Under the pieces are notes generated by a model that was not told where the DNA came from, made no database searches, and saw nothing but the letters and a program-made list of their open reading frames with translations. From Pseudomonadota bacterium (GTDB taxonomy: Bacteria; UBA10199; 2-02-FULL-44-16; JAAZCA01), in assembly GCA_043798915.1 (NCBI GenBank), contig JAZDOG010000086.1, positions 1 to 20,647 on the forward strand: a stretch of 20,647 nt of DNA. Direction: 5' to 3'. How positions within the stretch are numbered: position 1 is the first letter of the stretch; each line of letters begins with the position of its first letter. Both the position numbers and the translations under genes were made by a program. Shown in pieces: positions 885 through 20,647 of the stretch.

Positions 885-1152
885 GACCTGTTGAAAGGTG
901 AGATAGTCTGATTGGGCGCATTGCGCAGCGAGCCGTTTTTGCCGGCGAAAAATTGCCGGTTGTGCCTTGAGTAAAGTCTGCGTTGCACAACGACGCAAGA
1001 TGTCTGAGCGAGCAAAAGCCATTAACAATGGTAAAGTTTAATTCAGCGTTTGCGAGCGAGTTTCTTGCGTCGAAGCAATTTGAGTCCGTTGCAAAAACGT
1101 GCGAGCGGAGCAATTTTGCGCCCAATCAGACTATCTCACCTTTCAGCAGGTC
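885..1152 (+). repeat. 268-bp long palindromic element (MITE/RPE-like) with 36-bp terminal inverted repeats
   Basis: 885-920 GACCTGTTGAAAGGTGAGATAGTCTGATTGGGCGCA versus 1117-1152: 35/36 complementary, the exception being T891.G1146. Nested internal stems are present. AGG flanks both ends (882-884, 1153-1155). Confidence 0.85.
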
Positions 1153-2728
1153 AGGTGCGCGGCCCGGCGGCGATGACTCTTTCGCCGGCGTATTCGGCGT
1201 ACTGCGCGAAGTTTTTCTGGAAGCGCGCCGCGAGTTCATTGGCCTTGCGATCATAGGACGCCTTGTCGCGCCAGGTGTTCCTTGGGCTGAGCACGTCGTC
1301 GGGCACGCCGGGGCAGGAATCCGGAATGAGTATATTGAAGATCGGGTCCGGCGTGAACGAAGCGTTCTCCAGCTTTCCGTCCAGCACGGCGGAGAGGAGA
1401 GCGCGCGTGATCGATATCTTCATCCTGTTGCCCTCGCCGTAAGGGCCTCCGCTCCAGCCGCTGTTGACCAGCCAGCATGTCGCGCCGTGCGCTTTCAGCC
1501 TCTCGCCCAAAAACTTTGCGTATGCAGTGGGATGCAGCGGCATAAACGGCGTGCCGAAGCATGTGGAGAAGGTGGCCTGCGGCTCGTCGATCCCCACTTC
1601 CGTGCCCGCGAGCTTCGCCGTGTATCCGGAGAGGAAGTGGTACATCGCCATATCGGAGTTGAGTTTGGCTATCGGCGGCAGGACGCCGAACGCGTCGCAG
1701 GTGAGGAAGAAGACATGCTTCGGATGGCCGCCGACGCCCGGGATGACGCAGTTAGGTATGTGCTCGACTGGATAGGTCGCGCGGGTGTTCTCAGTGATCG
1801 TGTCGGCGTCGTAGTCGATTCTCCGGCTCTCCGGATCGACGATGACATTTTCGAGGATGGAACCGAAGCGGATCGCATCGAATATCTGCGGCTCCGCCTG
1901 TTTCGACAATTTAATAACCTTGGCGTAGCATCCTCCCTCGAAGTTAAATGTCCCCCGGTCGCTCCAGCCGTGCTCGTCGTCGCCGATCAGGCGCCTGGCC
2001 GGGTCGGCCGAGAGCGTGGTCTTGCCCGTGCCGGAGAGTCCGAAGAAGAGCGCGACGTCGCCGGCGTCGCCGACGTTTGCGGAGCAGTGCATCGGGAAGA
2101 CATTCCTGTCGGGCAAAAGGCCGTTCATGACAGAGAAGATGCTCTTCTTGATCTCGCCGCCGTAGCCCGTGCCGATGATGAGGATGATCCTCTTTTCAAA
2201 CGAGATCCCCACGAAGGTTCCGGAGTGGATGCCGAAGCGGACCGGATCGAGCTTCAAGTCCGCGGCATCGATGACCGTGAACTCGGGCCGGATATTTGCG
2301 CGTTCCTCCTTCGTGGGCCGGATGAAGAGTGTCGTCGCGAAGAGGGCGTGCCACGCCTTCTCGGCGATCACCCTGATCGGCATGCGGTATTTTGCGTCGG
2401 CGCCCGCGAAGCCCTCGAAGACGAAGCGGTCGCGGAGGACGAGATAATCTGTGGCAGCAGCCAGGAGCTTGTCGAAGGCCTCCTCCGAGATCTGCTTGTT
2501 GACCGGACCCCACCAGACGTGTTTCGCCGCCCATTTATCCTCGACGACGTAGCGGTCGGCGGGCGAACGGCCCGTGCGCTCGCCGGTGCGGACCACGAGC
2601 GCCCCGTTGGAGGCGAGAGTCCCCTCGCCGCGCTCGAGGGCCATCTCGACGAGCTTTGGCGGAGGGATGTTTCGGTGCACCAGCTCCGCATCGGTCTCCA
2701 TAAGTGCCGCAATCGCGCTTTCTGTCAT
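1151..2728 (-). CDS. pckA: Phosphoenolpyruvate carboxykinase (ATP)
   Basis: 525 aa. Motifs TGRSP, YGGEIKKSIF, PMHCSAN, FFGLSGTGKTTLS (P-loop), LIGDDEHGW, FNFEGGCYAK, ENTR, FLTCDAFGVLPP. Confidence 0.97.
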   Translation of the reverse strand: MTESAIAALMETDAELVHRNIPPPKLVEMALERGEGTLASNGALVVRTGERTGRSPADRYVVEDKWAAKHVWWGPVNKQISEEAFDKLLAAATDYLVLRDRFVFEGFAGADAKYRMPIRVIAEKAWHALFATTLFIRPTKEERANIRPEFTVIDAADLKLDPVRFGIHSGTFVGISFEKRIILIIGTGYGGEIKKSIFSVMNGLLPDRNVFPMHCSANVGDAGDVALFFGLSGTGKTTLSADPARRLIGDDEHGWSDRGTFNFEGGCYAKVIKLSKQAEPQIFDAIRFGSILENVIVDPESRRIDYDADTITENTRATYPVEHIPNCVIPGVGGHPKHVFFLTCDAFGVLPPIAKLNSDMAMYHFLSGYTAKLAGTEVGIDEPQATFSTCFGTPFMPLHPTAYAKFLGERLKAHGATCWLVNSGWSGGPYGEGNRMKISITRALLSAVLDGKLENASFTPDPIFNILIPDSCPGVPDDVLSPRNTWRDKASYDRKANELAARFQKNFAQYAEYAGERVIAAGPRT

Positions 2729-4350
2729 GGCTCGCTCCTGTTTTGGACGGGGTTGGTCGATAGTTCGCGGAAAGATGCGAGTTCGACGCCGGCGGCGGCC
2801 GCTGCCTTTGCAAACGCGGGGTCAGCCAGGACCGCCATCTCAGCCTCGCGCTCATCGTTGTAGCTGTCACGACAATCCGATGAATATCCCGGATGAACCA
2901 TCACCTCGGTGAGGCCCGAGGGAATCATCCCCAGCGTCTTTGCCCAGCGCCCCTTGAGATCCTTACCGGCGCCCAGAGAAAAACCGCCGAAGTGATCGGT
3001 GCTCTGAAAACCGCGCCCCCGCCAATAGGCCGGCTTGGAGGCCGCGAGGAATGAGACCGGGAGGCGTCTCGCAAGCGCCGCATGCCACGGCGACCAGAGG
3101 CCCTCGCGAGGGGAGCGCACCGCGCGGATTCCGAATTCGCGCGCCACGCGCTCCGCGGCGTTTCGTATGATCGGAAACACGTGGACGTGGTGATGGCTGT
3201 CCATGTGCCAGAGTTCCGGCCAGCGCTTTGCCACCTTCTCGCATTGCGCGCGAAGTTCCCGATACACCTCTTCAGCCGAGACCCGACCGGCCAGCACGCG
3301 CATGAGGAGCGCGCTCTGCGAAAGGAATGCGCCATCTTTGCCGACGAGCGTCGGCACGTCCTTCGGATCGGATATTGGATGACCCCACGTGAGCACCGCG
3401 TGAAAACCCACCTCGGGGCGAGCGTGCGCTTTCATCAGCTCATCCATCGACGCCTCGAACTCCGGCGAGTTGGCCATGGCGGAGGTCGACCTCACCGAGC
3501 CAGCAGCCACGGCCTTCAAAATCCCCCGGCTGATGGGGAGCGTCATGCCGAAGTCGTCGGCGTTGATCAGGAGCCTCCTCCTGCCCTCCTTCGCCGGCAG
3601 CTTGTAGCGGCCAAGCGCCCCGTTGATCCTGACGCGCAGGACGTCGCGCGCCATCCCCATGCCATCCTGCAGGAAGACGACTGTCGTCGGCTCGTTGAAA
3701 TATTTAAATTCGACCGGGACCTCCTTGGTCGTCAGCCCCAACCTCTCCGCGAGGTAGAGCGCCTCCACGTCGAACGGAAAGCCGCGCACGATCTGGCGCG
3801 AAAAGATGTTCTGCGCGGGCGCAGCGCGGAAGCCCTTCAGCCCCGCCTGCGAATCGCGGCAGTGGGGGATGATCGTGTGCCGCATGACCCAGTTGATGAC
3901 GCGGCTGGCCAGGTGGCGCGTGTAGAGATAGTGGAAGAAGGCGGGGCTTATCGTGTAGCGCGAATCCTGGTGCACACGGCAGGCGACCGCGACATCGGCC
4001 CCCTCCTCCAGCGCCTCCAGAATTCTCAATATCTGCGAGGGGGCATAGGCGAGGTCGACATCCAGAAAGATGCGAAACGCGCCCTTTGCGGCGAGCATCC
4101 CGGCGGCGACTGCGCCTCCCTTGCCGCGGTTCTCGCCATAGGAGATGACGCTCAGCGGGTAGGGCCTGCCGCGCGCGGCCCACTCCCTGGCCACGGCGAG
4201 GGTGCGGTCCGGGCTGCCGTCGTCGACTATCAGGAGCTCGGCGCTGCAAGTGAGGTCGCGGAAGAATTTGTCAAGCTCATCGAGCGTGCGCGCGACGAAC
4301 CCCTCCGCATTGTAGACCGGGACGATGACTGAAAGGTGTATCTGCGACAT
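2725..4350 (-). CDS. Fusion of a GT2 polyprenyl-phosphate sugar synthase-like domain and a YdjC/ChbG/HpnK-family deacetylase
   Basis: N-terminal motifs IVPVYNA, VDDGSPD, NRGKGGAV, FLDVD, DSQAGLKG, FPFDVE. C-terminal motifs INADDFG, GFH, DSHHHVH, EVMVHPG. GGAGG lies 8 nt before ATG 4350; TTG at 4356 is an alternative start. Confidence 0.88.
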   Translation of the reverse strand: MSQIHLSVIVPVYNAEGFVARTLDELDKFFRDLTCSAELLIVDDGSPDRTLAVAREWAARGRPYPLSVISYGENRGKGGAVAAGMLAAKGAFRIFLDVDLAYAPSQILRILEALEEGADVAVACRVHQDSRYTISPAFFHYLYTRHLASRVINWVMRHTIIPHCRDSQAGLKGFRAAPAQNIFSRQIVRGFPFDVEALYLAERLGLTTKEVPVEFKYFNEPTTVVFLQDGMGMARDVLRVRINGALGRYKLPAKEGRRRLLINADDFGMTLPISRGILKAVAAGSVRSTSAMANSPEFEASMDELMKAHARPEVGFHAVLTWGHPISDPKDVPTLVGKDGAFLSQSALLMRVLAGRVSAEEVYRELRAQCEKVAKRWPELWHMDSHHHVHVFPIIRNAAERVAREFGIRAVRSPREGLWSPWHAALARRLPVSFLAASKPAYWRGRGFQSTDHFGGFSLGAGKDLKGRWAKTLGMIPSGLTEVMVHPGYSSDCRDSYNDEREAEMAVLADPAFAKAAAAAGVELASFRELSTNPVQNRSEP

Positions 4351-4352
4351 TT

Positions 4353-5915
4353 TCAATCCCTCCTCCGATAAAACACCGCTCCGCTGATGGTCGTCTCCCC
4401 GCGATAATGCCCCTCAATGTACTCCATAAGCCTCGAATAGGCCAAAATAGGGTAGTATTGGTAGTCATGCAGGCCCGAAGGGGATGTATCTATTATATAC
4501 GCCGGCCTGTGGCGGCGAATATCTTCCATGAACATCTCCCAGGCGACGGGGTTCACATAGGCCGCCGTCTCCGAGGGAATCCCGCCCTTGAGCCCCGGGA
4601 CGCGCCCGGTGAGGGCATCGCTCCAGAAAAAGCGCGTCGCCGGGAGCCGCTCCGAATACCAGTAGATGAGAGGCGCATAGCCCCATGCCACCACGCGATC
4701 GGCTGGAGCGGTTTGCGAAGCGACGTAGGCGGCGATGGGCCTGTAATCATCGAGGTTGTCCTCGCCCGCCGCGCGGTTGATCTGCGGGATGAAGAAGCGT
4801 GCCACGGTGAATCCGACAGCCGGCAGGATGATCCATTTGAGGATGGCCCGCCTCGACCACTTTTGAGATTTATCCGCCCAGATCCGCGCCGCAACCGGCG
4901 CCGCAAGGATGGACATCGGCGGAACGAGCAGAAGGAAGTAGTGCCCGTAAAAACGATGCCCCGCCGAGACCGGAACGAAGCTCAAGATAAGCCAGAGGAC
5001 GATGAGCCATTCATGGGCGAAATCTCGTGTCTCATGTCTCGTGTTTCGATAAAGCGCGATGGTCCCGTAGATGGCTAACACCCATATCAGCGCGGTGCTC
5101 GCAATGTATGGCATCACGCGCGTAAGCAATTGGTGTACGAGGCCGATGCTCGCCGATCCCTCGCGGACGTACTCGAGGCTCCCCCGGATATTCCAGAACC
5201 AGAAACCATCGAGGGCCCCGGCGCGATAGAGATACGCGATCATCAAAAGCGGCGGGAGGAGCGAGCCGGCGATGAATCTGGCAAAGCCGCGCCAGTGTTC
5301 GATTTCCGGCCGCTCATGCGCGAGGATGGGTTTGGCGATTCCAAGATACGCCATGAGGATGATGAGATTCATCCCCGCCTGATATTTGAAAAGGCAGGAG
5401 ATGCCGAATGCGAGACCGCTTCCGAAGGCCCACCATCCCCTCCCCTCCCGCTCGAATCGGATCCAGAGCCAGAACTGCAGCGCGACAGACAGGAGCATCA
5501 CGGGCTCGATCGTGGTCGCGATGTACTTCGGTATGTAGGTCGTGCTGAATACGATGTAGAAGAGGGCTGCCCAAAAACCGGCCCGCCTGTCATACAGGCT
5601 ATTTGCTATCAGATAGATCACATATGCCGTGCCCCCGACGACCGCTATCGTCACGGCGTGCACGGCGATCATGTTGAACCTGCCGAATATGGAGAAGATC
5701 GCGCCATAGAAAAAATAGATGCCGAGCGGCTTGGTCTCCACGCAGTCGACGTATGGCACGCCGCCGTCGAACCATACCCGCGAGAAGAGGCCATATATCG
5801 CCTCGTCGACATCCAGCACCGGATGGATCAGCGCTGGAATACGCAATGCGATGAGGACACCGGCCAGGAAAAGGGGCCACTTGAAAGCGCTGATTTTTGA
5901 TTTTATATCCAGCAC
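4353..5915 (-). CDS. ArnT/PMT-like (GT-C fold) integral membrane glycosyltransferase
   Basis: 520 aa with many hydrophobic segments. DE motif after TM1 (LDVDEAIY), ETKPLG, CLFKYQ, RFYGHYF, and a soluble C-terminal domain. The GTG start is uncertain. Confidence 0.8.
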   Translation of the reverse strand: MLDIKSKISAFKWPLFLAGVLIALRIPALIHPVLDVDEAIYGLFSRVWFDGGVPYVDCVETKPLGIYFFYGAIFSIFGRFNMIAVHAVTIAVVGGTAYVIYLIANSLYDRRAGFWAALFYIVFSTTYIPKYIATTIEPVMLLSVALQFWLWIRFEREGRGWWAFGSGLAFGISCLFKYQAGMNLIILMAYLGIAKPILAHERPEIEHWRGFARFIAGSLLPPLLMIAYLYRAGALDGFWFWNIRGSLEYVREGSASIGLVHQLLTRVMPYIASTALIWVLAIYGTIALYRNTRHETRDFAHEWLIVLWLILSFVPVSAGHRFYGHYFLLLVPPMSILAAPVAARIWADKSQKWSRRAILKWIILPAVGFTVARFFIPQINRAAGEDNLDDYRPIAAYVASQTAPADRVVAWGYAPLIYWYSERLPATRFFWSDALTGRVPGLKGGIPSETAAYVNPVAWEMFMEDIRRHRPAYIIDTSPSGLHDYQYYPILAYSRLMEYIEGHYRGETTISGAVFYRRRD

Positions 5916-5953
5916 CCTTATTAATTAACACACGTTCAGGCGGCGAACAACCC

Positions 5954-5982
5954 TTGACTAAGAGCCCGTTTTTCAATAGTTT
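5954..5982 (+). promoter_or_regulatory. Putative sigma70 promoter for the PAP2/GT-C operon
   Basis: TTGACT (5954-5959), 17 nt, TAGTTT (5977-5982), 25 nt before ATG 6008, in the divergent intergenic gap. Confidence 0.5.
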
Positions 5983-6007
5983 GCCGCCAACGTCGACGGA
6001 ACAGCCC

Positions 6008-6991
6008 ATGCAGACAGCCGAAAATCGCAGCAGGATCTTCGAAATATTCGGGCCGAACACGGTCATCGTGCTCGTGTACTTTGGCCTCCTGATGGCCCTT
6101 TTCTTGAGCTACGGCGTGAGGCTGCAGCTCACACATTTCAAGCTCTGGTCCATATTCCTCTCGACGCTCCTCGTGATCTACTTGAGTTCCACGCTCGTGC
6201 AGCACGCGAGACAGGGCGCGGTCGCGGAGCTTCCCTTTCTCCCCTTTGCGGGCCGGAAGCTCGTTCGCTTCGCCATCGACTGGTTTCCCCTCGTGGCCCT
6301 CGTGACGATCTACGAGAACCTGCGCGAATACACCGGGGTCATCAGGACTGATTCGATCGACGCAACGCTATATAATCTCGACCTCCTCATCTTCGGCGTG
6401 GAACCGACGGTCTGGATCCAGAAATTCACGAACCCCATCCTCACGGAATACTTCGCATTCACATATACGCTCTACCTCATGCTCCCGCTGTCGTTGGGCT
6501 GGCTCTTCTATCTCTTCAGCCACCGCCGCGCGTTTCACACGCTGACGACTGCCGTTATCCTGACCCTGTGCATCGGGTTCGTCCTCTATCTCGTCTTTCC
6601 CGCCGGACCGCCCCGGTTCTATCTAGCGGGGCTGTTTGATCCTCCGCAGCTCCAGGGATATTTCGGCTACTACAACGCGATGCAGACGAGGTTCGACGCC
6701 GTGAACCCCATGACTTACCGCGCCAGCTTCCCGAGCCTCCACGTGGCCCTCTCGTCCCTGGCGCTCATCTTCGTGACGCGTTTCAGGGCGATAGTTCCTT
6801 TCTGGAAACTCCTGGTTCCGGTCTACGCGCTGCTCGTCGTGAGCCTCTGGATAGCGACTGTCTACCTCAGGCATCACTGGGCGGTCGACATCTTCGCCGG
6901 ATGGGGCGTCGCTGCTCTGGCTACCGCCTGCGCGCTGTGGATTCAGAAGCGCTGGCCCCGATATGAAGAATCAAACCGATCGATGGCTTGA
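6008..6991 (+). CDS. PAP2-superfamily membrane protein, Aur1/inositol-phosphorylceramide-synthase-like (PAP2_3)
   Basis: Multi-TM protein with FPAGPPRF, ASFPSLHVA and TVYLRHHWAVDIFAG, matching the conserved Aur1-like PAP2 motifs. ATG 6008 chosen because the longer ORF overlaps the divergent gene. Confidence 0.8.
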   Translation: MQTAENRSRIFEIFGPNTVIVLVYFGLLMALFLSYGVRLQLTHFKLWSIFLSTLLVIYLSSTLVQHARQGAVAELPFLPFAGRKLVRFAIDWFPLVALVTIYENLREYTGVIRTDSIDATLYNLDLLIFGVEPTVWIQKFTNPILTEYFAFTYTLYLMLPLSLGWLFYLFSHRRAFHTLTTAVILTLCIGFVLYLVFPAGPPRFYLAGLFDPPQLQGYFGYYNAMQTRFDAVNPMTYRASFPSLHVALSSLALIFVTRFRAIVPFWKLLVPVYALLVVSLWIATVYLRHHWAVDIFAGWGVAALATACALWIQKRWPRYEESNRSMA

Positions 6992-8540
6992 CGGCACGAA
7001 GCTCGCGCTCGTCCTTCTGGCGGCAGCGCTCTTCGTCCGGCTACCAGGCCTCTTCTGCGGGTTCTATAACCCTGACGAAACCTGCTACGCAGCCATCGGC
7101 CAGAGGCTCCTCGAAGGAAAGTTCCTCTATCTCCAGATAATCGACCACAAGCCCCCTCTCATATATTATCTCTACGCGCTCTTCGTCTTCATCGGAGGAA
7201 ACAAGGCAATCCTTGTCGCGCATGCGGCTATGATTGCGATAGTGGCTGCAACAGCATATGCGATTTGCCACATAGCTGATTTCCTGAATGTCATTGCGAG
7301 CCCGAAGGGCGAGGCAATCCCTTTGAGTCCAGGGGATTGCTTCGTCGCTGCCGCTCCTCGCAATGACAGCCATGTCGGCCTATTGGCTGCCATCCTCTAC
7401 ATAGTCGGCACGAGCCTGGGCAAACCGAACGACGTCGCCGCAGCAAACGCGGAATTGTTCTTCAACCTGCCGCTGACGCTCTCCCTCCTCTTCGCAATCG
7501 TGTCGCTCGACCGGAAAAAACTCAGATTCATCGCGGCGAGCGGAGCCTTCGCCGGAATCGCGGTGCTCATAAAGCCGCAGGCCGCAGTGGCGCCAGCTGC
7601 GACGGGCTTTTTTCTGCTCTTCGCTTCCGGCCTCGCGATCAGGCAGAGATTGAAATCTGCCGCGGCATTTGCGGCCTTCCTGTCGCTCCCGCTTGGGCTC
7701 GCCGCATTTTTTCTCTCCGCTAACGGATCCCTCTCCGCGGCATGGTACTGGGGCGTGACGGTCAATTCGCTCTACATGGAGGGGCATGAAGGCGGCGCCG
7801 TGATGGCTCTGAGATTCTTCAAGCAATCGCTCTACATGTTCTCCGAGGAGTTTGCCCTGTGGATTCCGCTTATCCTGTGGCCCTTTTTAAAAAATCGCGG
7901 CGACCGGATCATCTCTGGGAACGGAAGGCTCATCGCGATCTGGCTCGCGGCCTCAGCGCTGGCGGTCGTGCCCGGCTTCAGGTTCTACGGGCACTACTAT
8001 CTGCAGATGCTCCCGCCTCTTTCCATCTTAAGCGCCTGTGCAGCGCTGAAACTCCTTTCCGCGGCAAAGGCGAAGAGGGCGCTTGTGGCATCGTGGTGCG
8101 CGGTCATCGCGATACCGCTCGTCTATTCATGGATATGGGCCACGCCCCTCATCGGGAAGGGACTGGAGCCGGAGGAAAATGCCGGATTGATCAGCTATCT
8201 CAAAGAGGCGACGCGCCCCGGTGAAAAAATCGAGGTGTGGGGCCGGTTCAACGGAATCCCGTTTCTCGCAGGCCGCGAAAACGGCACGCGCTTTCTGAAC
8301 AAGAACCTGTTGAGCGGAAGCTTTCGGCGCAAAAAACTCGTCAGGATGCCCGACGCGCATTGGGATATGTTCTTTGCGGATATTGAGAAAAACAAGCCCG
8401 AGTGGTTCGTCGACCACTCGGGCGTGGATATGAAAGACGCTCCGATCAACCTCTTTCCGAAACTCGCCGACTATATCGAATCACACTACACGCTGAAGGC
8501 GGAAGTGAACGGCAGCACCGTCTATCGCCGAAACCGCTGA
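6963..8540 (+). CDS. Second ArnT/PMT-like (GT-C fold) membrane glycosyltransferase, carrying an in-frame palindromic insertion
   Basis: 525 aa. NPDETCY, DHKPPL, LIKPQ and RFYGHYY parallel the motifs of the 4353-5915 protein, and both have VFYRR/TVYRR near the C-terminus. Confidence 0.8.
   Translation: MKNQTDRWLDGTKLALVLLAAALFVRLPGLFCGFYNPDETCYAAIGQRLLEGKFLYLQIIDHKPPLIYYLYALFVFIGGNKAILVAHAAMIAIVAATAYAICHIADFLNVIASPKGEAIPLSPGDCFVAAAPRNDSHVGLLAAILYIVGTSLGKPNDVAAANAELFFNLPLTLSLLFAIVSLDRKKLRFIAASGAFAGIAVLIKPQAAVAPAATGFFLLFASGLAIRQRLKSAAAFAAFLSLPLGLAAFFLSANGSLSAAWYWGVTVNSLYMEGHEGGAVMALRFFKQSLYMFSEEFALWIPLILWPFLKNRGDRIISGNGRLIAIWLAASALAVVPGFRFYGHYYLQMLPPLSILSACAALKLLSAAKAKRALVASWCAVIAIPLVYSWIWATPLIGKGLEPEENAGLISYLKEATRPGEKIEVWGRFNGIPFLAGRENGTRFLNKNLLSGSFRRKKLVRMPDAHWDMFFADIEKNKPEWFVDHSGVDMKDAPINLFPKLADYIESHYTLKAEVNGSTVYRRNR
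7290..7367. repeat. 78-bp REP/RPE-like palindromic element inside a CDS
   Basis: GTCATTGCGAG...CTCGCAATGAC terminal inverted repeat, inner GCAATCCC/GGGATTGC stem, and a CCC-GAA-GGG mini-hairpin. It spans exactly 26 codons in frame. Confidence 0.85.
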
Positions 8541-8557
8541 CCCCGTCCTCACAGAGT

Positions 8558-10999
<2,442 letters not shown>

Positions 11000-11009
11000 A
11001 AATTCTCCT

Positions 11010-12275: not shown

Positions 12276-12285
12276 AAAAACCTCG

Positions 12286-12915: not shown

Positions 12916-12956
12916 ATTTGGGCCTGTTTTTGCGTTTTTTGCATTAAATTTAACGT

Positions 12957-14261
12957 CTACTTCTCTTTTTTAAGCTTCGTATCTGTAATTTTAGCCTTAT
13001 CGACTATGAAATCAAGGGTTTTCTCGAAGAGCATTTGAGAGCGCAGCTGGTCCAGCTGCTTGTTTTTATCCAGCTGTTCCTTCACCTTGGCTACCGGCTG
13101 GCCGTTCTGGACGGCAATCTCCGAGATCCTCGCCTCGAATTCCGCATCGGATATCTCGATCTTCTCCTGCTTGCCCACGGCGCTGATGATCATGTAGCCG
13201 CGCGCCCGGTTCGCCGCCTCGCCGGCGTTCTTCTCGACGAACTCCCGCGGGTCAATTTTGATCTGATCGAGCGACTGGCCGCGGGCCTTGAGCTGGCGGT
13301 CCATCTGCCCCAGCATGTTCCCGAGCTCCGCCTCGACCAGCGCCGCCGGGACCTCGAGCTCCTTGTGCTTCTCTATCAGGAGGCGGATCGCCTGCTCCCT
13401 CAGCATGTTGCGGATGACGTGATCCTTATATTCGGCGATTCTCTTCTTCAGATCGGCGCGCACCTCGTCGAGTGAGGTGAATTTTCCAAGCTCCTTGGCG
13501 AACTCGTCATTCAAGTCCGGCACGATCTTGCGGCGCAGGTCCTTGAGCTTCACCTTGAACTCGCCCTTCTTGCCGGCGATCTCCTTTTTGAAGTAGCTCG
13601 CGGGATAGATGAAGGAGATCGCGCGCTCCTCCTTGGCCTTCAGGCCTTTGATCTCCACCTCGAACTCCTCGAGGAGGGCCCCCGAGCCGAAGTCGACTAC
13701 GTAGTTCTCGGCCTCGCTTCCGGAAAACGGCTTTCCTCCGGCGGTTCCCTTGAAGTCGACCATACCGACCATGCCCGGCCCCAGCTCCGCCTCCAAAGCT
13801 GGCTCGAGCTGCGTCATCTGGCCCTGCAGGCGGCGGAGCTCGACCTCCACCTCCTCGTCATCCACGGCCGCCTTCTCGCGCTCGAGCTTCAAGCCCTCGT
13901 AGCCGGCGGCGGTGAACTCGGGGTAGACCTCGAAATTGGCCTTGTATGAGAAGGTCTTGCCCTTTTCGATCTTGCCTCCGGGCTCGATCTGCGGATCCCC
14001 TATGGGGCGCGCCTGTGTCTCGCGGACGGCCGCGGGATACGTGTTGCGAACGAGCTCCTTTATCGCCTCGGCATTGAGCTCTTCTGAGAAGCGCTGCGCT
14101 ATGATATCTCCCGGAATCTTGCCCTTCCTGAAACCGGGGATCTTCGCCTCGCAGCGGATCTTCTCGGTCGCGGCGTCGATCGCCTTTTCCACGAGATCGG
14201 AGGTCGCCTCGACGCTCAACGTCTGCCTGATGGTGCCGATTTTCTCTAAAGAGGTTTTCAT
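12957..14261 (-). CDS. tig: Trigger factor
   Basis: [10 protein letters not shown] ribosome-binding signature, FKBP-like middle domain, position upstream of clpP. AAGGAG RBS precedes ATG 14261. Confidence 0.95.
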
Positions 14262-14282
14262 CAATATTCTCCTTCAAATTTT

Positions 14283-14367
14283 TGGTGCGAGGGAGGGGAG
14301 TCGAACCCCTATGGATTTCTCCACCAGATCCTAAGTCTGGCGCGTATTCCAGTTCCGCCACCCTCGC
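14283..14367 (-). tRNA. tRNA-Leu (anticodon TAG)
   Basis: 85 nt: GCGAGGG/CCCTCGC acceptor stem plus ACCA, anticodon arm CCAGA-CTTAGGA-TCTGG, long variable arm, GTTCGAC T-loop. Confidence 0.96.
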
Positions 14368-14409
14368 ATTAGGGCCCTAATTTTCCGCCTGAATGCCAAA
14401 ATGGCGATC

Positions 14410-14438
14410 AAGCTAGCGATTTTCGACTGCAAAGGCAA
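14410..14438 (-). promoter_or_regulatory. Putative sigma70 promoter for tRNA-Leu/tig
   Basis: Minus strand TTGCCT (14438-14433), 17 nt, TAGCTT (14415-14410), upstream of the tRNA. Confidence 0.5.
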
Positions 14439-14459
14439 GAAATAGTCAAAAAAGAGACA

Positions 14460-15233
14460 TCAAATGCCCTTCTTCTCAGCTATGAGCGTCCAGGACATGC
14501 CGTTTGTGTGCGTGAGGCGGGAGATATTAACGGGAAGGCCGTCCACGAGCCGCTCCACCTCCTCCCGCCGCCAGTAGTGGGCTATATGCGGCAGCAGCTG
14601 GTCGAAGACGATAGCCTCCGTATGACGAAACGACCCCTCCTTCAAAAGGTTCAGATATTTGTCCCGATGCGGAAGCAGTAGATAGCCCCTGAAGAGGATG
14701 GTGATCGCCTTCGCGATGCATCTGGTGACGCGCAGATTGATGCGCGACGTCACGAAGGCCCGAAACGGATTGAACCACTTGAGATACCTCTCGTTCCCTT
14801 CGCGCGCATACACCCACACGATCAGCGTCCCGCCGACTTTAAGCGCTGCAACGAGTTTCCGCACCGCCTCCATCGGGCGCTCGAGGTGATGTATCACGCC
14901 GATGCAGAACACGATGTCGAATTCCTCCGCGAACCCGATGTTGTATATGGATCTGTAGGCGACCTCGCAGTTGGCAAACCCCTTCAGATTCTCCCTGGCG
15001 ACCGCGACCGTGCGCTCGTCGTAGTCAAACGCGATGCCTGCGGCGGCTCCGCCTTTCAGCGCCCAGAGGCTGTTGCGCCCTATCCCGCAGCCCGCGTCGA
15101 GGAACCTCTTTCCCTTGAAGAAGGAGAGCTCGACAGGGTTGATCCAACGGAGGAACTGCTTCTCGTGGATGGGGAGGATCTCGCGGTAGATATCCCACTC
15201 GAAGCCGAATTTTTTTTCAGTCCCGCTGCTCAT
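14460..15233 (-). CDS. Class I SAM-dependent methyltransferase
   Basis: FLDAGCGIG motif I and FDIVFCIGVIHHL. ATG at 15233 overlaps the upstream stop (ATGA). Confidence 0.88.
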   Translation of the reverse strand: MSSGTEKKFGFEWDIYREILPIHEKQFLRWINPVELSFFKGKRFLDAGCGIGRNSLWALKGGAAAGIAFDYDERTVAVARENLKGFANCEVAYRSIYNIGFAEEFDIVFCIGVIHHLERPMEAVRKLVAALKVGGTLIVWVYAREGNERYLKWFNPFRAFVTSRINLRVTRCIAKAITILFRGYLLLPHRDKYLNLLKEGSFRHTEAIVFDQLLPHIAHYWRREEVERLVDGLPVNISRLTHTNGMSWTLIAEKKGI

Positions 15234-15976
15234 GTTATACACCTTGCGACTGCAAAGAGCTGCGCCCCTCTCCTGCTTGAGTTGAGTTTGAACGCAAGCC
15301 GCAGCGCCGCACAGACGAAATTCTGAAAATGCGTGTATCGCTTCTCGCTGAATCGCTCCATCGTCTTATCGGGATTCAAATTGGCGAACCGTTTCGACCA
15401 GTCGTGAAACGGAAAGCCGCAGTTCCAGACCTTGACGGGTCTCCAGCCGGTCCTCTCGAGCAGTCCAGCCATCTCACCCGCGCTGAAATGCCTGTGGTGG
15501 CCTACCCGCCTCTCCGTCTCCCCCACCCTTCCGCTCTGGGTGGAGATGAGGAGCGTCCCGCCAGGTCTGGCCAGCGCCAGCGCGTTCTTGAGAAATATCT
15601 CAGGGTGCGGAAGGTGCTCGACGACTTCCGAGGCGAGCACGGCATCGAAGCGGCCCCGCAGTCCATCCGGAAACTGCTGTTCCGCACCGAGATCGAGCGT
15701 CCGCCACTCGACCGAGGGATCGGCCGCGAGGTTTGCCTCCGTCTGCGCGGGCGAAAGATCGATCCCGCAGAGCCGGATTCCCGGATATCTGTCCCTGATC
15801 TCCCTGAGGAGCTCGCCATTTCCGCAGCCGAGATCGACGAGATTCGCGGGCCTGATATCTCCGAGGATTTTCAGAAAAGCGGCGACGCGAAACCGAGGGG
15901 CTGCCATCTTGCGCCAATAATCCAGCCTGCCCGGCTGGGAGGCTGAATAATATTCCCGGTTAACATCGATGGCCAT
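15230..15976 (-). CDS. Class I SAM-dependent methyltransferase
   Basis: LVDLGCGNG, GIDLS, FDAVLASEVVEHL, PGGTLLIST. Starts directly after the upstream TAA. Confidence 0.88.
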   Translation of the reverse strand: MAIDVNREYYSASQPGRLDYWRKMAAPRFRVAAFLKILGDIRPANLVDLGCGNGELLREIRDRYPGIRLCGIDLSPAQTEANLAADPSVEWRTLDLGAEQQFPDGLRGRFDAVLASEVVEHLPHPEIFLKNALALARPGGTLLISTQSGRVGETERRVGHHRHFSAGEMAGLLERTGWRPVKVWNCGFPFHDWSKRFANLNPDKTMERFSEKRYTHFQNFVCAALRLAFKLNSSRRGAQLFAVARCIT

Positions 15977-17350
15977 TTATTTCTTCACCTTCGCGAGCCC
16001 GCAGTAGAGATGCGCGCAGGTGGCAATGCCCTTGTGGAAGTTCTCGAGTTTGAATCTCTCATTGGGCGAATGTATCACGTCGCTCGGCAGGCTGAATCCG
16101 ACGAGCAGAGGCGCAGCCTTGAGCTCGGACTGGAACGTCGCCGTGATCGGAATCGACGCTCCCTCGCGCACCATTATCGGCCGCCTTCCAAATCCGCTCT
16201 CTAGCGCGGTTGCGGCCGCCTTCACAAACGGGTTGTCGAGCGGGACCAGCACGGGCGGAGCGCTCTGCAGGACAGTCACGTTGACCGTGACTCCCGGAGG
16301 ACATATGCTCGTCAGATAATCCTTGAATTGTTTGGCGGTCTTCTCCGGATTCATGTTCGCGACCAGGCGCGAACTCACCTTGAACCCGCCTTCCGAAGCG
16401 ATGACCGTCTTGGGGCCGGGCCCTGAATACCCTCCCCAGATGCCATGGACATCGAGCGAGGGACGCGCCCAGTTGCGCTCGCTGGACGTAAACCCATTCT
16501 CCCCCCACAGCGCTGATATACTTAAATCCTTCTTCATCTCCTCGTCATGATTGCCGATCGACGCAAACTCCTTGCGCTCCGCATCGGAGAGCTTGACGAC
16601 ATCGTCATAATAGTGAGGGATCTGAATGACGCCATTCTCGTCCTGCAGCTTGGCTATCATCTTGCCGATCGCATTGAGGGGGTTTTGCACCATGCCGCCG
16701 AACGAGCCAGAGTGGAGGTCGCGCTTCGGCCCCTTCACATCGACCTGCAGATAGCACATGCCGCGCATCGCATACACCATCGTCAGCATCTCATCCGTGT
16801 GCCAGTTCGTGTCGCTCACGGCCACCGCATCGCATGCGAGCAGCTCTTTGTTTTGAACCACGAACGGGGACGTGTGCAGCGATCCGCATTCCTCTTCGCC
16901 TTCGACGAAGAATTTGACATTGACCGGAAGCTTGCCCGTGTTCTTCATCAGCGCCTCAAGGGCAAACAGATGCGCGCAGAACTGGCCTTTGTCGTCCGCC
17001 GTCCCGCGCCCGTAGATATAGCCATCCCTTATCGCCGGGTCGAACGGAGGCGTGGTCCATTTCTCGATGGGATCGGCAGGCTGGACGTCGTAATGCCCAT
17101 AGACGAGGATAGTCGGCGCGCCCTCGGCGTGGAGCCAGTCGCCGTACACGACCGGATGCAGCCCGGTCTCCATGAGCTTCACATTTTCGATCCCGATGTT
17201 CTTCAGCCTGCCCGCCAGCCATTCCGCGGCCTTTCGAGTCTGTGCGCTGCGGGCCGGATCGGCCGAGACGCTCTCGATCTTCAACCACTCGATCATCTCG
17301 CTCTCGTACCGCTTTTCGTTCTGCTTGATGAAACTGAGGACTTTTTCCAT
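15977..17350 (-). CDS. M20-family metallopeptidase (dipeptidase-like)
   Basis: YGHYDVQP, GRGTADDKG, EGEEE, DLHSG, GASIP, IHSPNE. AAGGAG RBS upstream of ATG 17350. Confidence 0.92.
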   Translation of the reverse strand: MEKVLSFIKQNEKRYESEMIEWLKIESVSADPARSAQTRKAAEWLAGRLKNIGIENVKLMETGLHPVVYGDWLHAEGAPTILVYGHYDVQPADPIEKWTTPPFDPAIRDGYIYGRGTADDKGQFCAHLFALEALMKNTGKLPVNVKFFVEGEEECGSLHTSPFVVQNKELLACDAVAVSDTNWHTDEMLTMVYAMRGMCYLQVDVKGPKRDLHSGSFGGMVQNPLNAIGKMIAKLQDENGVIQIPHYYDDVVKLSDAERKEFASIGNHDEEMKKDLSISALWGENGFTSSERNWARPSLDVHGIWGGYSGPGPKTVIASEGGFKVSSRLVANMNPEKTAKQFKDYLTSICPPGVTVNVTVLQSAPPVLVPLDNPFVKAAATALESGFGRRPIMVREGASIPITATFQSELKAAPLLVGFSLPSDVIHSPNERFKLENFHKGIATCAHLYCGLAKVKK

Positions 17351-17572
17351 AATGACTTCTCTCCTTTCGTTAGGAACTGCCACTCTGATCATTTATATTG
17401 AGGATGGTTGGCTCTCCGGTTTTTTTCATCCATTGATCTTCTTGAAGCTCAAAATTTAAAAAAAGGTTGCAAATCAATCAAATAGACCCTATCGGAAGGG
17501 TAGGGGCGGGAACCTATTGAAAAAAAGAATGGTTGTCAAAAGTCTTCTTGTCGCCCTGAACCTTTCATGGCC

Positions 17573-17587
17573 TGGCACGGCTTTTGC
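17573..17587 (+). promoter_or_regulatory. Sigma54 (RpoN) -24/-12 promoter
   Basis: TGGCACGGCTTTTGC matches TGGCACG-N4-TTGC with exact GG-N10-GC spacing, 56 nt upstream of ATG 17644. Confidence 0.75.
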
Positions 17588-17643
17588 CCAAATCCGTGTT
17601 TGAAGGCGCTGAGTTGGTGTTAAATTTACAAAAGGGAGAAAAC

Positions 17644-18879
17644 ATGGATAACCAATTGTTCGAAAAAGTTTCAAAGACTATCGATAGTTTCAGAAACGAC
17701 TCTGTTGAATTGCAGAAAAAACTGATCTCCACCCCAGCCATAGGCCCGGAAAGCGGTGGGGAAGGCGAAATGAAAAAGTATCAGCTGCTCGAACCTCTTC
17801 TCAAACAGGTTTCGGATGAGCTCACAACCATGCATGCCAAAGACGATCGCGTTCCTTCCGGTCTCAGACCCAACGCAATGGCAAAGATCAAAGGCAAGAA
17901 CAACAAGGTCAATCTGTGGATCATGGCGCACATGGACGTGGTCCCCGCGGGAGACGAAAAACAATGGAAGACAAAGCCCTTTGAAGCGACAATACAGGAT
18001 GGAAAGATCATCGGGCGAGGCGCAGAGGACAACCATCATGGGATCTGCGCAGGCTATTTCGCAATGAAGGCGCTCAAACAACTGAAGATCACTCCTCCTG
18101 TAAACGTGTGCCTCCTGCTCATATCCGACGAAGAGGTGTCGAATGAATACGGAATCACGCACATCATTAAAAACCACAAGTCGCTGTTCAATAAAAACGA
18201 CCTCTTCATAGTTCCGGATTCGGGCGACGAAAAAGGCGAAACGATAGAGTGCGCCGAAAAACACGTCGTCTGGCTCAAGTTCACGACGACTGGCAAGCAG
18301 AGCCATGCGGCGTTCCCCAACCTCGGCAAGAATGCATGCAGGGCCGCCGCCCATCTGATAGTGGCGATGGAAAAGCTGAGAGACAAATATTCGATGACAG
18401 ACAAGGTCTTTGTCGATCCGTCGTATTGCACGATTGAACCGACGAAGAGGCTCGCCAACGTTCCCAACGTGAACACGATCCCGCCTGAAGATGTAACCTT
18501 CTTCGACTGCCGCCTGCTCCCAGAGGTCAACGTGGACAAGTTCATCGCTGACGTGAAGGAAATCGCCAGGGGCGTGGAGAGCAAGTTCGGCGTAAAGATA
18601 GCAGTCGATATAGACAGCCTTATGCCAGCCTCCTACACGCCACCGGATTCAGCGGTAGTGAAAAGGCTTCAGATCGCCGCCAAGGCGGTATACAATACTG
18701 ATGCAAAACCGATTGGAATCGGGGGGGCGACTGTCAGCAGCCTCTTGAGGCAAGAGGGCTTTCAGGCAGCCTGTTTCGGCAAGATATTCGAGACCTGCCA
18801 CCAGCCGAATGAATTCACGACGATCGACGGCATTCTGGGCGATGCAAAGGTCTTTGCACACACAGCTTTGCAAGACTAG
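17644..18879 (+). CDS. M20-family metallohydrolase (ArgE/DapE-like)
   Basis: PAIGPESGGEGE, MAHMDVVP, GRGAEDN, SDEE, VPD, GKQSHA, CHQPNE. AAGGGAG RBS before ATG 17644. Substrate cannot be determined. Confidence 0.88.
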   Translation: MDNQLFEKVSKTIDSFRNDSVELQKKLISTPAIGPESGGEGEMKKYQLLEPLLKQVSDELTTMHAKDDRVPSGLRPNAMAKIKGKNNKVNLWIMAHMDVVPAGDEKQWKTKPFEATIQDGKIIGRGAEDNHHGICAGYFAMKALKQLKITPPVNVCLLLISDEEVSNEYGITHIIKNHKSLFNKNDLFIVPDSGDEKGETIECAEKHVVWLKFTTTGKQSHAAFPNLGKNACRAAAHLIVAMEKLRDKYSMTDKVFVDPSYCTIEPTKRLANVPNVNTIPPEDVTFFDCRLLPEVNVDKFIADVKEIARGVESKFGVKIAVDIDSLMPASYTPPDSAVVKRLQIAAKAVYNTDAKPIGIGGATVSSLLRQEGFQAACFGKIFETCHQPNEFTTIDGILGDAKVFAHTALQD

Positions 18880-18925
18880 TTTATTCCATCGGTTTGCTCC
18901 GCGACCGGTGGTTTCAAAACCAATC

Positions 18926-20275
18926 ATGTTATTCTTCACCATCTTCGTATTCATTGCCCTGGCCATCCAGATCGGCATCATCATCTACGCATGGCACGTC
19001 CTGACAAAACCGCTGCATCAGCTGACGGAGATGATGCAGAGGGTGGAGGAAATCGAGCCGGAAAAATTTCTTCCGACGCTCCTGAATCAGCCGATGCCCC
19101 GGAGCGCGTCCAGCGAGGTGAACCGCTTCTACAAGGTGTACCAGAAGCTCCTCCAGAACATCCACGTCCACGAGCTGCACGAGAAGGAGATGGCGGTCCA
19201 GGCTTCCATCGGAAAGATCGCGTCGCACATCGCGCACGACATTCGCTCGCCGCTCTCCGTCCTCGGCGGCTTCATGGGGCTCGTGAAGGACATCGACGAC
19301 CCCGACTTCAACGAATTCAAGGGGGCCGCCGGACGAAGCGTCGATAAGCTTGGCCGCATGGCCGACGACCTGGTCGACTACGCGAGCGCCAAGCAGATCC
19401 AGCCGGCACCGGTGAACATCGGAAAGATCCTGAACGAAGCGGCCGAGGAGTTTGCGAAGACGGCTGCCGAGAGGGAAATCTCAATGGAGGTGAACTGCCA
19501 GGATTCGCTCGCGGCCAGGATCGATGAGCACAAGTTCAACCGCGTCCTCGCGAACATGATCCAGAATGCCGTCCACGCCATTCCGCAGACCGGCGGCAGG
19601 ATAGGCATCAGGGCCCGCCTGGATGAAAAAGGCTGGCTCCGCATCTCCATCGCCGACACGGGCTCCGGGATCGAGGAGAAACACCTCCCGCGGCTCTTCG
19701 ACAGCTCGTTCACCTTCGGGAAGCCCTCCGGCACGGGGCTCAGCCTCTCGTATTGCAAAAACGTCGTGGAGGCCCACGGTGGCCGCATCTCCGTGGAAAG
19801 CAAAGCGGGGAAAGGCAGCACCTTCACGATAGAATTGCCGATCTCCGCCTCCAGGCTGGCTGAAGTCGGACAGCCAGAGGGCAAATTCGAGCTTCCGGCT
19901 GCCAGGGCACAGGATAGTGCGCGCGCGATTCTTGTCGTCGATGACGACGAGCAGATACTCGCTCAATGGAAACATCTCATCGGGGAGCTGACGCAGTTTG
20001 ACATCGTCACGGCCAGCGGCCCCGAGGAGATGCTAAAGATATATCCGACGCCGGAGAGATTTCGCGCCGCCATCTGCGATTACCGCTTCGAGGGAAAAGA
20101 CACGACGGGGATCGACATCATCAAAATCCTTAAGGAAAAGGGCATCTGCTGCCGCTACCTCTGCACCGGATTCTACTACGACCCCGCGCTGCGCGAGGCG
20201 GCCATCGCCGCCGGCGCGCACGCCATCATTCCAAAGCCGATCCCGGATGGACTCGTGAAACAATTGTTCGGATGA
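18926..20275 (+). CDS. Hybrid sensor histidine kinase / receiver protein
   Basis: One N-terminal TM, a HAMP-like segment, H-box AHDIRSPL, N-box NMIQNA, G1 DTGSGI, G2 GTGLSL, and a C-terminal receiver (VVDDD, CDY, CTG, PKP). The start is uncertain; no clear RBS. Confidence 0.85.
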   Translation: MLFFTIFVFIALAIQIGIIIYAWHVLTKPLHQLTEMMQRVEEIEPEKFLPTLLNQPMPRSASSEVNRFYKVYQKLLQNIHVHELHEKEMAVQASIGKIASHIAHDIRSPLSVLGGFMGLVKDIDDPDFNEFKGAAGRSVDKLGRMADDLVDYASAKQIQPAPVNIGKILNEAAEEFAKTAAEREISMEVNCQDSLAARIDEHKFNRVLANMIQNAVHAIPQTGGRIGIRARLDEKGWLRISIADTGSGIEEKHLPRLFDSSFTFGKPSGTGLSLSYCKNVVEAHGGRISVESKAGKGSTFTIELPISASRLAEVGQPEGKFELPAARAQDSARAILVVDDDEQILAQWKHLIGELTQFDIVTASGPEEMLKIYPTPERFRAAICDYRFEGKDTTGIDIIKILKEKGICCRYLCTGFYYDPALREAAIAAGAHAIIPKPIPDGLVKQLFG

Positions 20276-20280
20276 CATGT

Positions 20281-20528
20281 TGTGCAATTTTTCGCAGGGG
20301 AGCCTCATCCCTGGAACCGCGCCAGCTCCCTCCGGCTATTCGTCTTGAAAATAGCGGCGGTTTCAACACCTCATCATACAAAACCTCTGTCGGAACAAGT
20401 TCGGGGCTTCCCTTCGTCAGCCCCTAACTTGTGAAACCGCCGCCATTTTCAAAACTCATACGCCTGCGCTCGCGCATAAGAGGCGCTTAAAGTTCCAGGG
20501 ACGAGACTCCCCTGCGAAAAATTGCACA
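20281..20528 (-). repeat. 248-bp long palindromic element with 37-bp terminal inverted repeats
   Basis: 20281-20317 versus 20492-20528 (35/37). Inner 21-bp stem 20345-20365 versus 20432-20452 (20/21). Hairpin 20396-20408 versus 20419-20431. Confidence 0.85.
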
Positions 20529-20647
20529 CGCTGGATTTTTGGGGGATTTTCAAAGGACGCGAGACTCAATTCGTGAAATAAGTGTCCCCGGAATTATGAG
20601 TATTTTTCACGATTGCTTTTTTCAATGTATAGGCTTGATAAGGTGTT

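Follow-up and report, generated by a model that had tools for sequence, protein, structure and literature searches.

Two families of large, purine-strand-biased hairpins in an uncultured bacterial lineage, probably mobile and REPIN/MITE-like

The window analysed here, a whole stretch of 20,647 nucleotides, carries two long palindromes, A and B, each placed at the stop codon of a gene, and this raises the question of what kind of element they represent. A preliminary description of this DNA had proposed a non-autonomous mobile element or structured RNA defined by structure rather than sequence. The palindromes themselves are confirmed, the outer arms of A (36 nt) being 97% complementary and those of B (37 nt) 95%, and the two elements do indeed have unrelated terminal repeats. 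Element A overlaps the stop codon of pckA by 2 nt, B begins 5 nt past that of a histidine kinase gene, and in both cases the better-folding strand is antisense to the adjoining gene, as had been described. The features of the two elements and their surroundings are as follows.

885..1152, plus strand: element A, whole hairpin, 268 nt; plus is the purine-rich, better-folding strand
885..920, plus strand: 5′ outer arm of A, pairing with 1117-1152; the sole mismatch forms a plus-strand T.G wobble
921..1116, plus strand: conserved core of A, a multi-branch fold with 50 consensus pairs
924..931, plus strand: 5′ side of the purine motif of A (CGCAG at 924-928, C929, GA at 930-931)
1103..1110, plus strand: 3′ side of the purine motif of A (GA at 1103-1104, G1105, CGGAG at 1106-1110)
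1117..1152, plus strand: 3′ outer arm of A, its last 2 nt within the pckA stop codon
1151..2728, minus strand: pckA, the gene ending at element A (context)
18809..20275, plus strand: hybrid sensor histidine kinase, its stop 5 nt before element B
20281..20528, minus strand: element B, whole hairpin, 248 nt; minus is the purine-rich, better-folding strand
20281..20317, minus strand: outer arm of B adjoining the histidine-kinase stop codon, the 3′ arm on the minus strand
20330..20341, minus strand: 3′ side of the purine motif of B (GA at 20341-20340, CGGAG at 20334-20330)
20337..20365, minus strand: one side of the inner stem of B, pairing with 20432-20460
20432..20460, minus strand: other side of the inner stem of B, pairing with 20337-20365
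20456..20468, minus strand: 5′ side of the purine motif of B (CGCAG at 20468-20464, GA at 20457-20456)
20492..20528, minus strand: second outer arm of B, the 5′ arm on the minus strand
20529..20598, no strand assigned: tail of about 70 nt beyond B, which also accompanies the full B copy of contig C61

Folded as single strands, A and B give z scores of -12.2 to -13.7 on both strands, and in none of the four cases did any of 200 shuffles fold as well. Folding is strand-dependent as claimed, with -85.0 kcal/mol on the plus strand of A against -81.2 on its minus strand, and -87.3 on the minus strand of B against -76.2 on its plus strand. Both mismatches in the outer arms of B are G.T wobbles on the minus strand, and its inner stem spans 29 nt with 86% complementarity. 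The two elements had also been said to hold CGCAG in exact register opposite CGGAG, next to a tandem G.A/A.G pair. This stands for A, where the tandem pair joins 930-931 and 1103-1104, but in B the register is reached only through a small asymmetric loop, with the tandem pair 6 bp further in (20456-20457 with 20340-20341); in the minimum-energy fold of B, part of CGCAG pairs locally instead. Because the spacing of the motif differs between A and B, the common fold holds for the motif and the design, not for the spacing. Two smaller hairpins were noted nearby: a terminator-like one just outside A (874-859), and a separate hairpin repeat contained in the tail beyond B.

Covariance-model and BLAST searches revealed that both elements are, as anticipated, members of multi-copy families. 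A covariance model of the core of A, termed R1, recognizes element A itself at 914-1121 (E 2.6e-45) and, among 61 related genomes, detects 44 distinct full copies spread over 10, with 2, 7, 15, 10, 2, 1, 2, 5, 2, and 2 matches per positive genome and E values reaching 1e-61. Relatives of B were found by BLAST in 12 of the 61 genomes, and the genome that carries B holds one full copy at 89% identity together with four partial ones. Homology between the two families is undetectable, R1 giving no match on B, and what they have in common is a design in which long, fast-diverging, compensated outer arms surround a conserved core. The elements measure about 190-330 nt, of which roughly 130-195 nt form the conserved apex core; a near-perfect stem of 25-40 bp makes up the base and changes fast from copy to copy without losing its pairing. 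The idea of a class defined by structure rather than sequence is unsupported or overstated, since each family's core is strongly conserved and free variation is confined to the arms: R1 finds the A-type core kept across genera and families, and 15 copies of it share 50 invariant columns. Scanning 185,579 species genomes with a pattern that recovers 12 of the 44 known copies gave 23 stretches; the ones from three MAG records seem to be relatives already in the set, and the remaining matches, in high-GC genomes, are probably due to chance. When metagenomes were searched with the C-terminus of pckA, the best relative was only 77% identical, hence neither a near strain nor an empty site was available, and no A-type element was found 3′ of pckA in the 6 nearest loci (of 80) that were given to R1.

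Stems of the A-type core covary strongly when put to the test that the preliminary description had proposed. Double changes occur in 34 of the 50 pairs compared to 15.3 in shuffles, and 95.7% of cells are paired compared to 83.5%; none of 500 shuffles reached either value, and slid controls gave at most 8 double-change pairs. The motif is likewise kept among A-type homologues, with its G.A pair in 39 and its A.G pair in 40 of the 44 distinct copies and the tandem G.A and A.G in 38 each, and the neighboring pair covaries, being G-C in 30 and A-T in 11 copies. In B-type elements the tandem G.A pairs are carried by CGTATGAG, identical in 11 of 12 copies, and by GA[A/G]TAG, present in all 12. The C-GAA-G loop, to which importance had also been attached, is not conserved in the relatives of B.

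The preference for one strand extends to both families. The purine-rich strand is the more stable in 41 of 44 A-type and all 21 B-type copies under RNA parameters, and in 39 of 44 and 20 of 21 under DNA parameters. Arm mismatches in A-type copies comprise 29 G.T, 7 A.C, and 15 transversion-type among 1041 pairs, and in B-type copies 9, 1, and 2, respectively, among 469 pairs, so that pooled arms of both families contain 38 G.T against 8 A.C. In the core, wobble bias varies with the strand used for the consensus (34:7 vs. 22:20); the bias obtained from a one-strand consensus was discarded as partly an artefact, and pairs common to both strand consensuses give 19:7. The orientation rule, first seen in two copies, proved general: among 34 copies located within 100 nt past a stop codon, the purine-rich strand is antisense to the gene in 31 and sense in 3 (27 vs. 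2 when only genes confirmed by Pfam or NCBIfam are counted). Coupling to the replication strand, which the preliminary description had raised by way of replichores, was rejected on the local GC skew of 25 A-type copies, whose purine strand lies on the G-rich strand in 12 and on the C-rich strand in 13. A and B themselves lie in opposite orientation on the same contig.

We consider it probable, at about 0.6, that A and B represent two families in a lineage-restricted superfamily of large non-coding, REPIN/MITE-like mobile hairpins in which the purine strand is selected. Selection would see the purine-rich strand folded alone, the G.A block may be the recognition site of an enzyme that copies the element in trans, and copies would survive mainly where they lie just 3′ of a gene and have their purine-rich strand on its template strand, such that the mRNA of the gene carries the weaker, pyrimidine-mismatch version. 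As for the mobiliser, a structure-specific single-strand enzyme is a tentative guess. It is a good deal more speculative that the two-fold symmetric CGNAG/CGNAG block and the tandem G.A/A.G are where a still undescribed structure-specific enzyme docks, one whose copying is tied to transcription and not to replication and that works, for example, at the 3′ ends of genes on the template strand or on an RNA intermediate. If true, transcription-tied copying would set apart a class of mobile elements mechanistically distinct from IS200/IS605, REPIN-RAYT, and DDE MITEs.

A mobilising gene was not found, nor was a parent insertion sequence with matching ends in the loci examined. As a test for retrons, reverse transcriptase was sought and found neither among the 15 long ORFs of the window, which gave other assignments or no match, nor among 32 ORFs flanking other copies, which belong to housekeeping families or had no match (5 of 32). 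Recognition by HUH enzymes, suggested earlier, gains no support, given that Y1/RAYT-like genes (PF01797) occur in 53 of the 61 genomes with or without elements, compared to A-type copies in 10; their co-occurrence is uninformative because the family is so widespread. The proposed linkage to RAYT genes fails as well, as no Y1/RAYT-like gene adjoins any copy, and BLAST placed no A or B copy around the three Y1-like genes of the source genome. The only transposase found inside copies is of IS110 type and is inserted into the core, not between ends: two copies in genome G003 are interrupted at an identical point of the core by an IS110/IS1111-like element, flanked on either side by GAG and encoding the same 390-aa DEDD/Transposase_20 protein. 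This insertion is site- and orientation-specific inside the repeat, as for IS110-family target repeats. REPs serve as targets for some IS110 members.

Passages of PMC3116915 describe compensatory changes across the REPIN hairpin as common, and propose folded ssDNA or mRNA as the selected form. The present elements resemble REPINs in being non-coding, dispersed, extragenic hairpins kept by compensatory changes, here in core and arms alike, and Y1/RAYT-like genes exist in their genomes. However, in REPINs, about 70-110 nt long, the ends are conserved and the spacer varies, whereas here the apex is conserved and the base variable; REPINs number hundreds per genome against 1-15 matches here; and a cognate RAYT is flanked by its repeats, whereas no Y1 gene is flanked by copies of A or B. 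PATEs, non-autonomous derivatives of IS200/IS605 that are moved as single strands by the Y1 HUH enzyme TnpA, are comparable in that strand-specific imperfect hairpins are recognized, no target duplication is made, and terminal inverted repeats are not required in principle. In IS200/IS605 elements the two ends bear small hairpins separate from each other, and insertion is biased to the lagging-strand template; the present elements, on the contrary, are one giant hairpin with no replication-strand bias, which speaks against IS200/IS605, the one well-understood single-strand mechanism. In the literature on REPIN/RAYT and MITEs we found no description of the present architecture, which is no proof that it is unpublished.

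An unlikely alternative is that these are structured RNAs or single-strand structures selected by the host at gene 3′ ends, each copy being kept paired in place, for instance as a guard against convergent antisense transcription or as a 3′-end processing or stability element. Conservation of the core across genera and families together with strong covariation would suit such a function, as would arms that are near-perfect even where they have diverged beyond alignment, and the tight post-stop placement with its fixed orientation. The same intergenic site, with homologous flanking genes on both sides, holds an A-type element in G012 and a B-type in G001, and in G000 as well as G020 an A-type copy adjoins pckA. 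However, the strand with the signs of selection runs antisense to the adjoining gene, and thus the mRNA of that gene carries the other strand. No promoter-like site was found on either strand inside A or B, no terminator-like site was found in B, and a terminator or promoter role was rejected on these grounds; nor was any conserved sequence found to travel upstream of the arms. Rfam contains no match for either element: at gathering thresholds the whole window gave tRNA only, and at E<=10 there was nothing for A and one chance snoRNA match (10.8 bits) for B. Finally, A-type copy number ranges from 0 to 15 among close genera, truncated copies occur, and ten copies in G005, 86-97% identical with shared arms, look like a burst, all as for selfish DNA.

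It is very unlikely that the elements are ordinary double-strand MITEs, that is, deletion derivatives of a DDE insertion sequence whose transposase binds the terminal inverted repeats. Classical MITEs such as Correia/NEMIS, ERIC-like, and RUP-like elements are 100-300 bp long, bear terminal inverted repeats, lie between genes near gene ends, and can fold in transcripts; the present elements resemble them in size, terminal repeats, position, and folding potential. Their inverted repeats are long, arms or termini are shared among copies in G005, G012, and G059, and a B-type terminus beginning TGTGCAA recurs in G000, G005, and G016. However, no consistent target-site duplication was seen on inspection of all 21 B-type copies and about half of the A-type (the G003 copies), and no conserved termini are common to all copies. 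In G003 and G000 the interior is conserved but the arms and termini differ between copies, contrary to what transposase-bound ends imply. Strand-biased wobbles and conserved purine-purine pairs would be meaningless in duplex DNA; a conserved, covarying interior with such pairs, and the strict orientation, set the elements apart from classical MITEs. The IS110-type enzyme, too, sits in the core and not between the ends.

Judged from their sequences, the arms are inherited with the element, not made from the target. Arms of copies winA and C53 are about 58% alike (by eye) and those of a2 and a8 about 67%; copies in G001 share arms with compensated changes and a second outer stem of 28-35 bp that is homologous but diverged; and B-type arms show a G-run pattern common across genera. 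In G003, 11 copies have cores 80-94% identical and arms that are mostly unalignable, whereas in G005 cores are 86-90% identical and arms at least 90% alike, a contrast that a simple master-copy model does not explain and that could reflect long residence with selection in place. That only the core moves, with fold-back or template-switch synthesis making new arms out of the flanking DNA at each site (an inverted target duplication) or the core landing in pre-existing palindromes, would fit the G003 arms, 26-37 bp, perfect yet different in every copy, and two neighboring copies with cores 93% identical and unrelated arms, but it can hardly be correct and was rejected as the main source, given the homology of arms between loci just listed and a source genome with no coreless palindromes carrying A or B arms.

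Bacterial hairpin repeats are usually recognized by their conserved ends. The present elements instead conserve a large folded center that contains four purine-purine pairs, all near-invariant, and their long stems change freely but remain paired. The wobble bias, and an orientation that follows the gene in about nine of ten copies and is blind to replication, raise the question of what single-stranded form selection acts on and by what process the polarity of transcription is read. Because the elements break assemblies, act as landing pads for an IS110-family element, and occupy the 3′ regions of many housekeeping genes, they are relevant to the annotation of genomes from this uncultured lineage and possibly to how its genes are expressed.

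Every copy of the two kinds of element, whether related to A (885-1152, purine-rich on the plus strand) or to B (20281-20528, purine-rich on the minus strand), is one long hairpin, in which an outer stem, mostly of 23-43 bp (only 7-20 bp in a few copies), leads inward to an irregular purine-rich stem and then to one to three inner hairpins. The following parts were delimited in the window with a repeat finder.

885-920/1117-1152: outer arms of A, 36 nt, 97% complementary
20281-20317/20492-20528: outer arms of B, 37 nt, 95% complementary
20337-20365/20432-20460: inner stem of B

Single-strand folds of both strands of A and B gave z-scores of -12.2 to -13.7, with 0 of 200 dinucleotide shuffles as good; fold energies were -85.0 (plus) vs. 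-81.2 (minus) kcal/mol for A and -87.3 (minus) vs. -76.2 (plus) kcal/mol for B. The preliminary description located CGCAG and CGGAG pentamers correctly in both elements and set them in exact register within a common fold. This register holds in A (C-G, G.A, C-G, A.G, G-C), whereas B needs a small asymmetric loop. Moreover, in A the pentamer block is followed by one C-G pair and a tandem G.A/A.G at 930-931/1103-1104, and in B six pairs and a bulge separate the pentamers from the tandem further in (20456-20457/20340-20341). Because of this loop and the displaced tandem, what A and B have in common is the motif and the design, not an identical fold.

Relatives of A (A-type) keep these purine pairs, whose conservation the preliminary description had asked to be tested, in 38-40 of 44 copies.

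Pairs around the purine motif in A-type elements (44 distinct full-length copies, 10 genomes; alignment fitted to R1, the covariance model of the A-type core, and leaning towards that model)
Pair on the other side of the purine block: C-G 35, T-A 3, T.G 3
First purine pair: G.A 39/44
Pair between the two purine pairs: free (G-C 12, G.G 10, C-G 5, others 17)
Second purine pair: A.G 40/44
Next pair inward: G-C 30, A-T 11
Tandem pairs: G.A 38/44, A.G 38/44

Among relatives of B (B-type), CGTATGAG is identical in 11 of 12 copies and GA[A/G]TAG is present in all 12, which together place the tandem G.A/A.G between Watson-Crick pairs. By eye, 10 of the 12 show a CGNAG-form pentamer on the 5′ side, and most copies retain the facing G.A; at the second purine pair, six copies have A.G, and those of genome G005 and of own-genome contig C61 have A-T. 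The C-GAA-G loop noted earlier is not conserved among the B relatives. Covariation in the A-type core is strong: pairing holds in 95.7% of helix cells, against 83.5% in shuffles, and 34 of 50 pairs carry double-sided changes vs. 15.3, neither value being reached by any of 500 shuffles (slid controls at most 8), and 50 columns are invariant among 15 copies.

The suggestion that both elements fold strand-specifically extends to their relatives. Under RNA parameters the purine strand is the more stable in 41 of 44 A-type copies (mean difference in minimum free energy -9.2 kcal/mol) and in 21 of 21 B-type copies (-13.3 kcal/mol); under DNA parameters the counts become 39 of 44 and 20 of 21. Arm mismatches point the same way. 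On the purine strand, 1041 A-type arm pairs contain 29 G.T, 7 A.C and 15 transversion-type mismatches, and 469 B-type pairs contain 9, 1 and 2, respectively; after collapsing mismatches evidently inherited within a genome, G.T:A.C is 26:7 for A-type and 9:1 for B-type. Since only Watson-Crick matches were used to set the arm boundaries, the method introduces no strand bias. In the core, the purine-strand consensus gives 34 G.U vs. 7 A.C but the complement-strand consensus 22 vs. 20, so that this wobble signal is partly circular; pairs common to both consensuses give 19 vs. 7. Non-template deamination during transcription of the neighbouring gene would be expected to enrich A.C on the purine strand, opposite to the data. 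We conclude that selection acts on pairing within the unpaired form of the purine-rich strand, either RNA or single-stranded DNA, in which G.T/G.U is tolerated.

Both elements adjoin a stop codon, as first described: an arm of A overlaps that of pckA by 2 nt, and B starts 5 nt past that of a hybrid histidine-kinase gene. The rule that the better-folding strand is antisense to the adjacent gene, proposed from these two copies, was examined in elements at most 100 nt from the stop codon of a flanking ORF of at least 100 aa that passed a crude codon-position composition filter. The purine strand is antisense in 19 A-type and 12 B-type copies and sense in 3 and 0, or 31 vs. 3, although these 34 copies, which span more than 10 genomes and two families, are not all independent owing to shared ancestry and local duplications. 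With confirmed genes, namely both window genes and those 27 of the 32 other ORFs that Pfam assigns, at E<=1e-8, to unrelated housekeeping families, the count is 27 vs. 2. Replication direction, taken from the sign of local GC skew, which mostly agrees with local coding-strand bias, has no link to A-type orientation: the purine strand is the G-rich strand in 12 and the C-rich strand in 13 of 25 copies (9:7 in genome G003, 3:4 in G001, 0:2 in the own genome), and A and B are opposite in this respect on the same contig. Orientation follows the gene, not the replication fork, and is transcription-linked. This freedom from the replication strand sets A-type elements apart from IS200/IS605; an IS200/IS605 derivation was rejected on a tested defining feature.

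No promoter-like site was found on the plus strand at A, so any A transcript, lying in the 3′ region of pckA, would be of the pyrimidine-mismatch strand. On the minus strand, a terminator-like hairpin (874-859) separates A from a strong promoter-like site (820-793, sigma-70-like, 11 of 12) for the next operon; this site serves a Gp49/HigB-like gene and an HTH gene, likely a toxin-antitoxin pair, located just past A (158-867, minus).

Neither element is an orphan. The own-genome assembly (2.34 Mb, 105 contigs, 57.7% G+C; the window is contig C37) contains a full B copy on C61 (89% identity) and partial copies on C47, C94, C72 and C57. The end of C47 overlaps the right end of the window, indicating that the assembly broke at B. 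C47 (24592-24701) has a truncated B with 17 nt of the window left flank, including the histidine-kinase gene end (95.5% over 111 nt), which suggests a duplication including flank rather than clean transposition. On C94 (45439-47257) an AT-rich segment truncates a B copy past the central hairpin; the HTH ORF and the 449-aa ORF in this segment may be another toxin-antitoxin module. A small separate palindromic repeat just past B (20555-20610) recurs at C73:1367-1420 and C75:1452-1520. Some 70 nt beyond B (20529-20598) recur beside the C61 copy, which may reflect either a non-palindromic tail of B or a neighbouring repeat.

A is single by BLAST in the own genome, and R1, built from 15 core copies, finds a second member (C53:62127-62321, E 5.6e-46). 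R1 matches occur in 10 of 61 genomes (the own and 60 relatives; 2, 7, 15, 10, 2, 1, 2, 5, 2 and 2 per genome), from three families of the same class, and B-type BLAST matches in 12 of 61. A shorter B-like type occurs in a third genome group (G039, G046, G058). At least six own-genome copies (e.g., C12:10283-10505, C72:32113-32331, C11:11466-11682, C90:26422-26636) form a 215-223-bp hairpin family whose core looks B-type by eye and whose arms, common within the family, differ from those of B; several further hairpin families (~120, 150 and 180 bp) are, by eye, purine-rich on one strand. B escapes R1 even with the threshold relaxed to E<=1, and homology of A and B is therefore not demonstrable; an Rfam search matched neither to a family. 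At one intergenic site with homologous flanking genes (41% and 49% identity), G012 has an A-type (L073) and G001, of another genus, a B-type element (L024). A-type copies adjoin pckA on its 3′ side in the own genome and on its 5′ side in G020. In G005 (C133, 5614-6061; L083/L040) ~100 nt separate a B-type from an A-type element, and this spacer is found again 5′ of other G005 A-type copies, which hints at composite units.

The arms evolve differently from the core. In the 3-contig genome G003, the cores of 11 full copies are 80-94% identical, and the arms, perfect or near-perfect in themselves, are mostly unalignable between copies, having diverged much further than the cores; in G005, ten copies have arms in common even where cores are only 86-90% identical. 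Formation of arms from flanking DNA at each insertion was rejected as their chief origin, since arms from separate loci are recognisably related: those of A and its C53 relative are ~58% alike, and those of two G003 copies with unrelated flanks ~67%. Four G001 copies have a common 34-nt arm whose differences are fully compensated, and a second outer stem (28-35 bp) that is homologous but diverged; a pattern of G runs persists in B-type arms from different genera. Since arms are related across loci, change with compensation and are never seen as coreless palindromes in the own genome, they travel with the element, free to change while pairing is kept.

Neither target duplications, sought at the borders of all 21 B-type and about half of the A-type copies, nor conserved termini were found. 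No Y1/RAYT-like gene, the kind of linked gene once considered, adjoins a copy, to judge by BLAST around the three in the own genome, and such genes do not discriminate, as 53 of 61 genomes have them. Two own-genome copies of a ~330-aa Y1 (IS200-like/RAYT-like) gene (C93:2-1015 and C71:1-975, 97% identical) each start at a contig end, so the preceding sequence is probably a repeat that broke the assembly. The only transposase found inside copies is a 390-aa IS110/IS1111-type protein (Pfam Transposase_20, DEDD_Tnp_IS110), which splits the core of two A-type copies in G003:

L059:1686-2858, plus: IS110/IS1111-like transposase
L061:264-1436, minus: IS110/IS1111-like transposase

Both inserts (~1.43 kb, with sub-terminal inverted repeats) occupy the same position in a conserved core motif (GCGAG|TTC), with GAG on both sides, identifying the core as a landing site. 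REPs are landing sites for some IS110 members.

Membership in classical MITEs was rejected, a tested defining feature being lacking. Of the kinds described, the REPIN comes closest: a non-autonomous hairpin that shows compensatory changes and is proposed to act as single-stranded DNA or mRNA (PMC3116915). The present elements differ in their inverted layout, a size two to three times greater, low copy numbers and the lack of any observed link to RAYT. A- and B-type elements are classed here as a lineage-restricted superfamily of strand-specific hairpin repeats.
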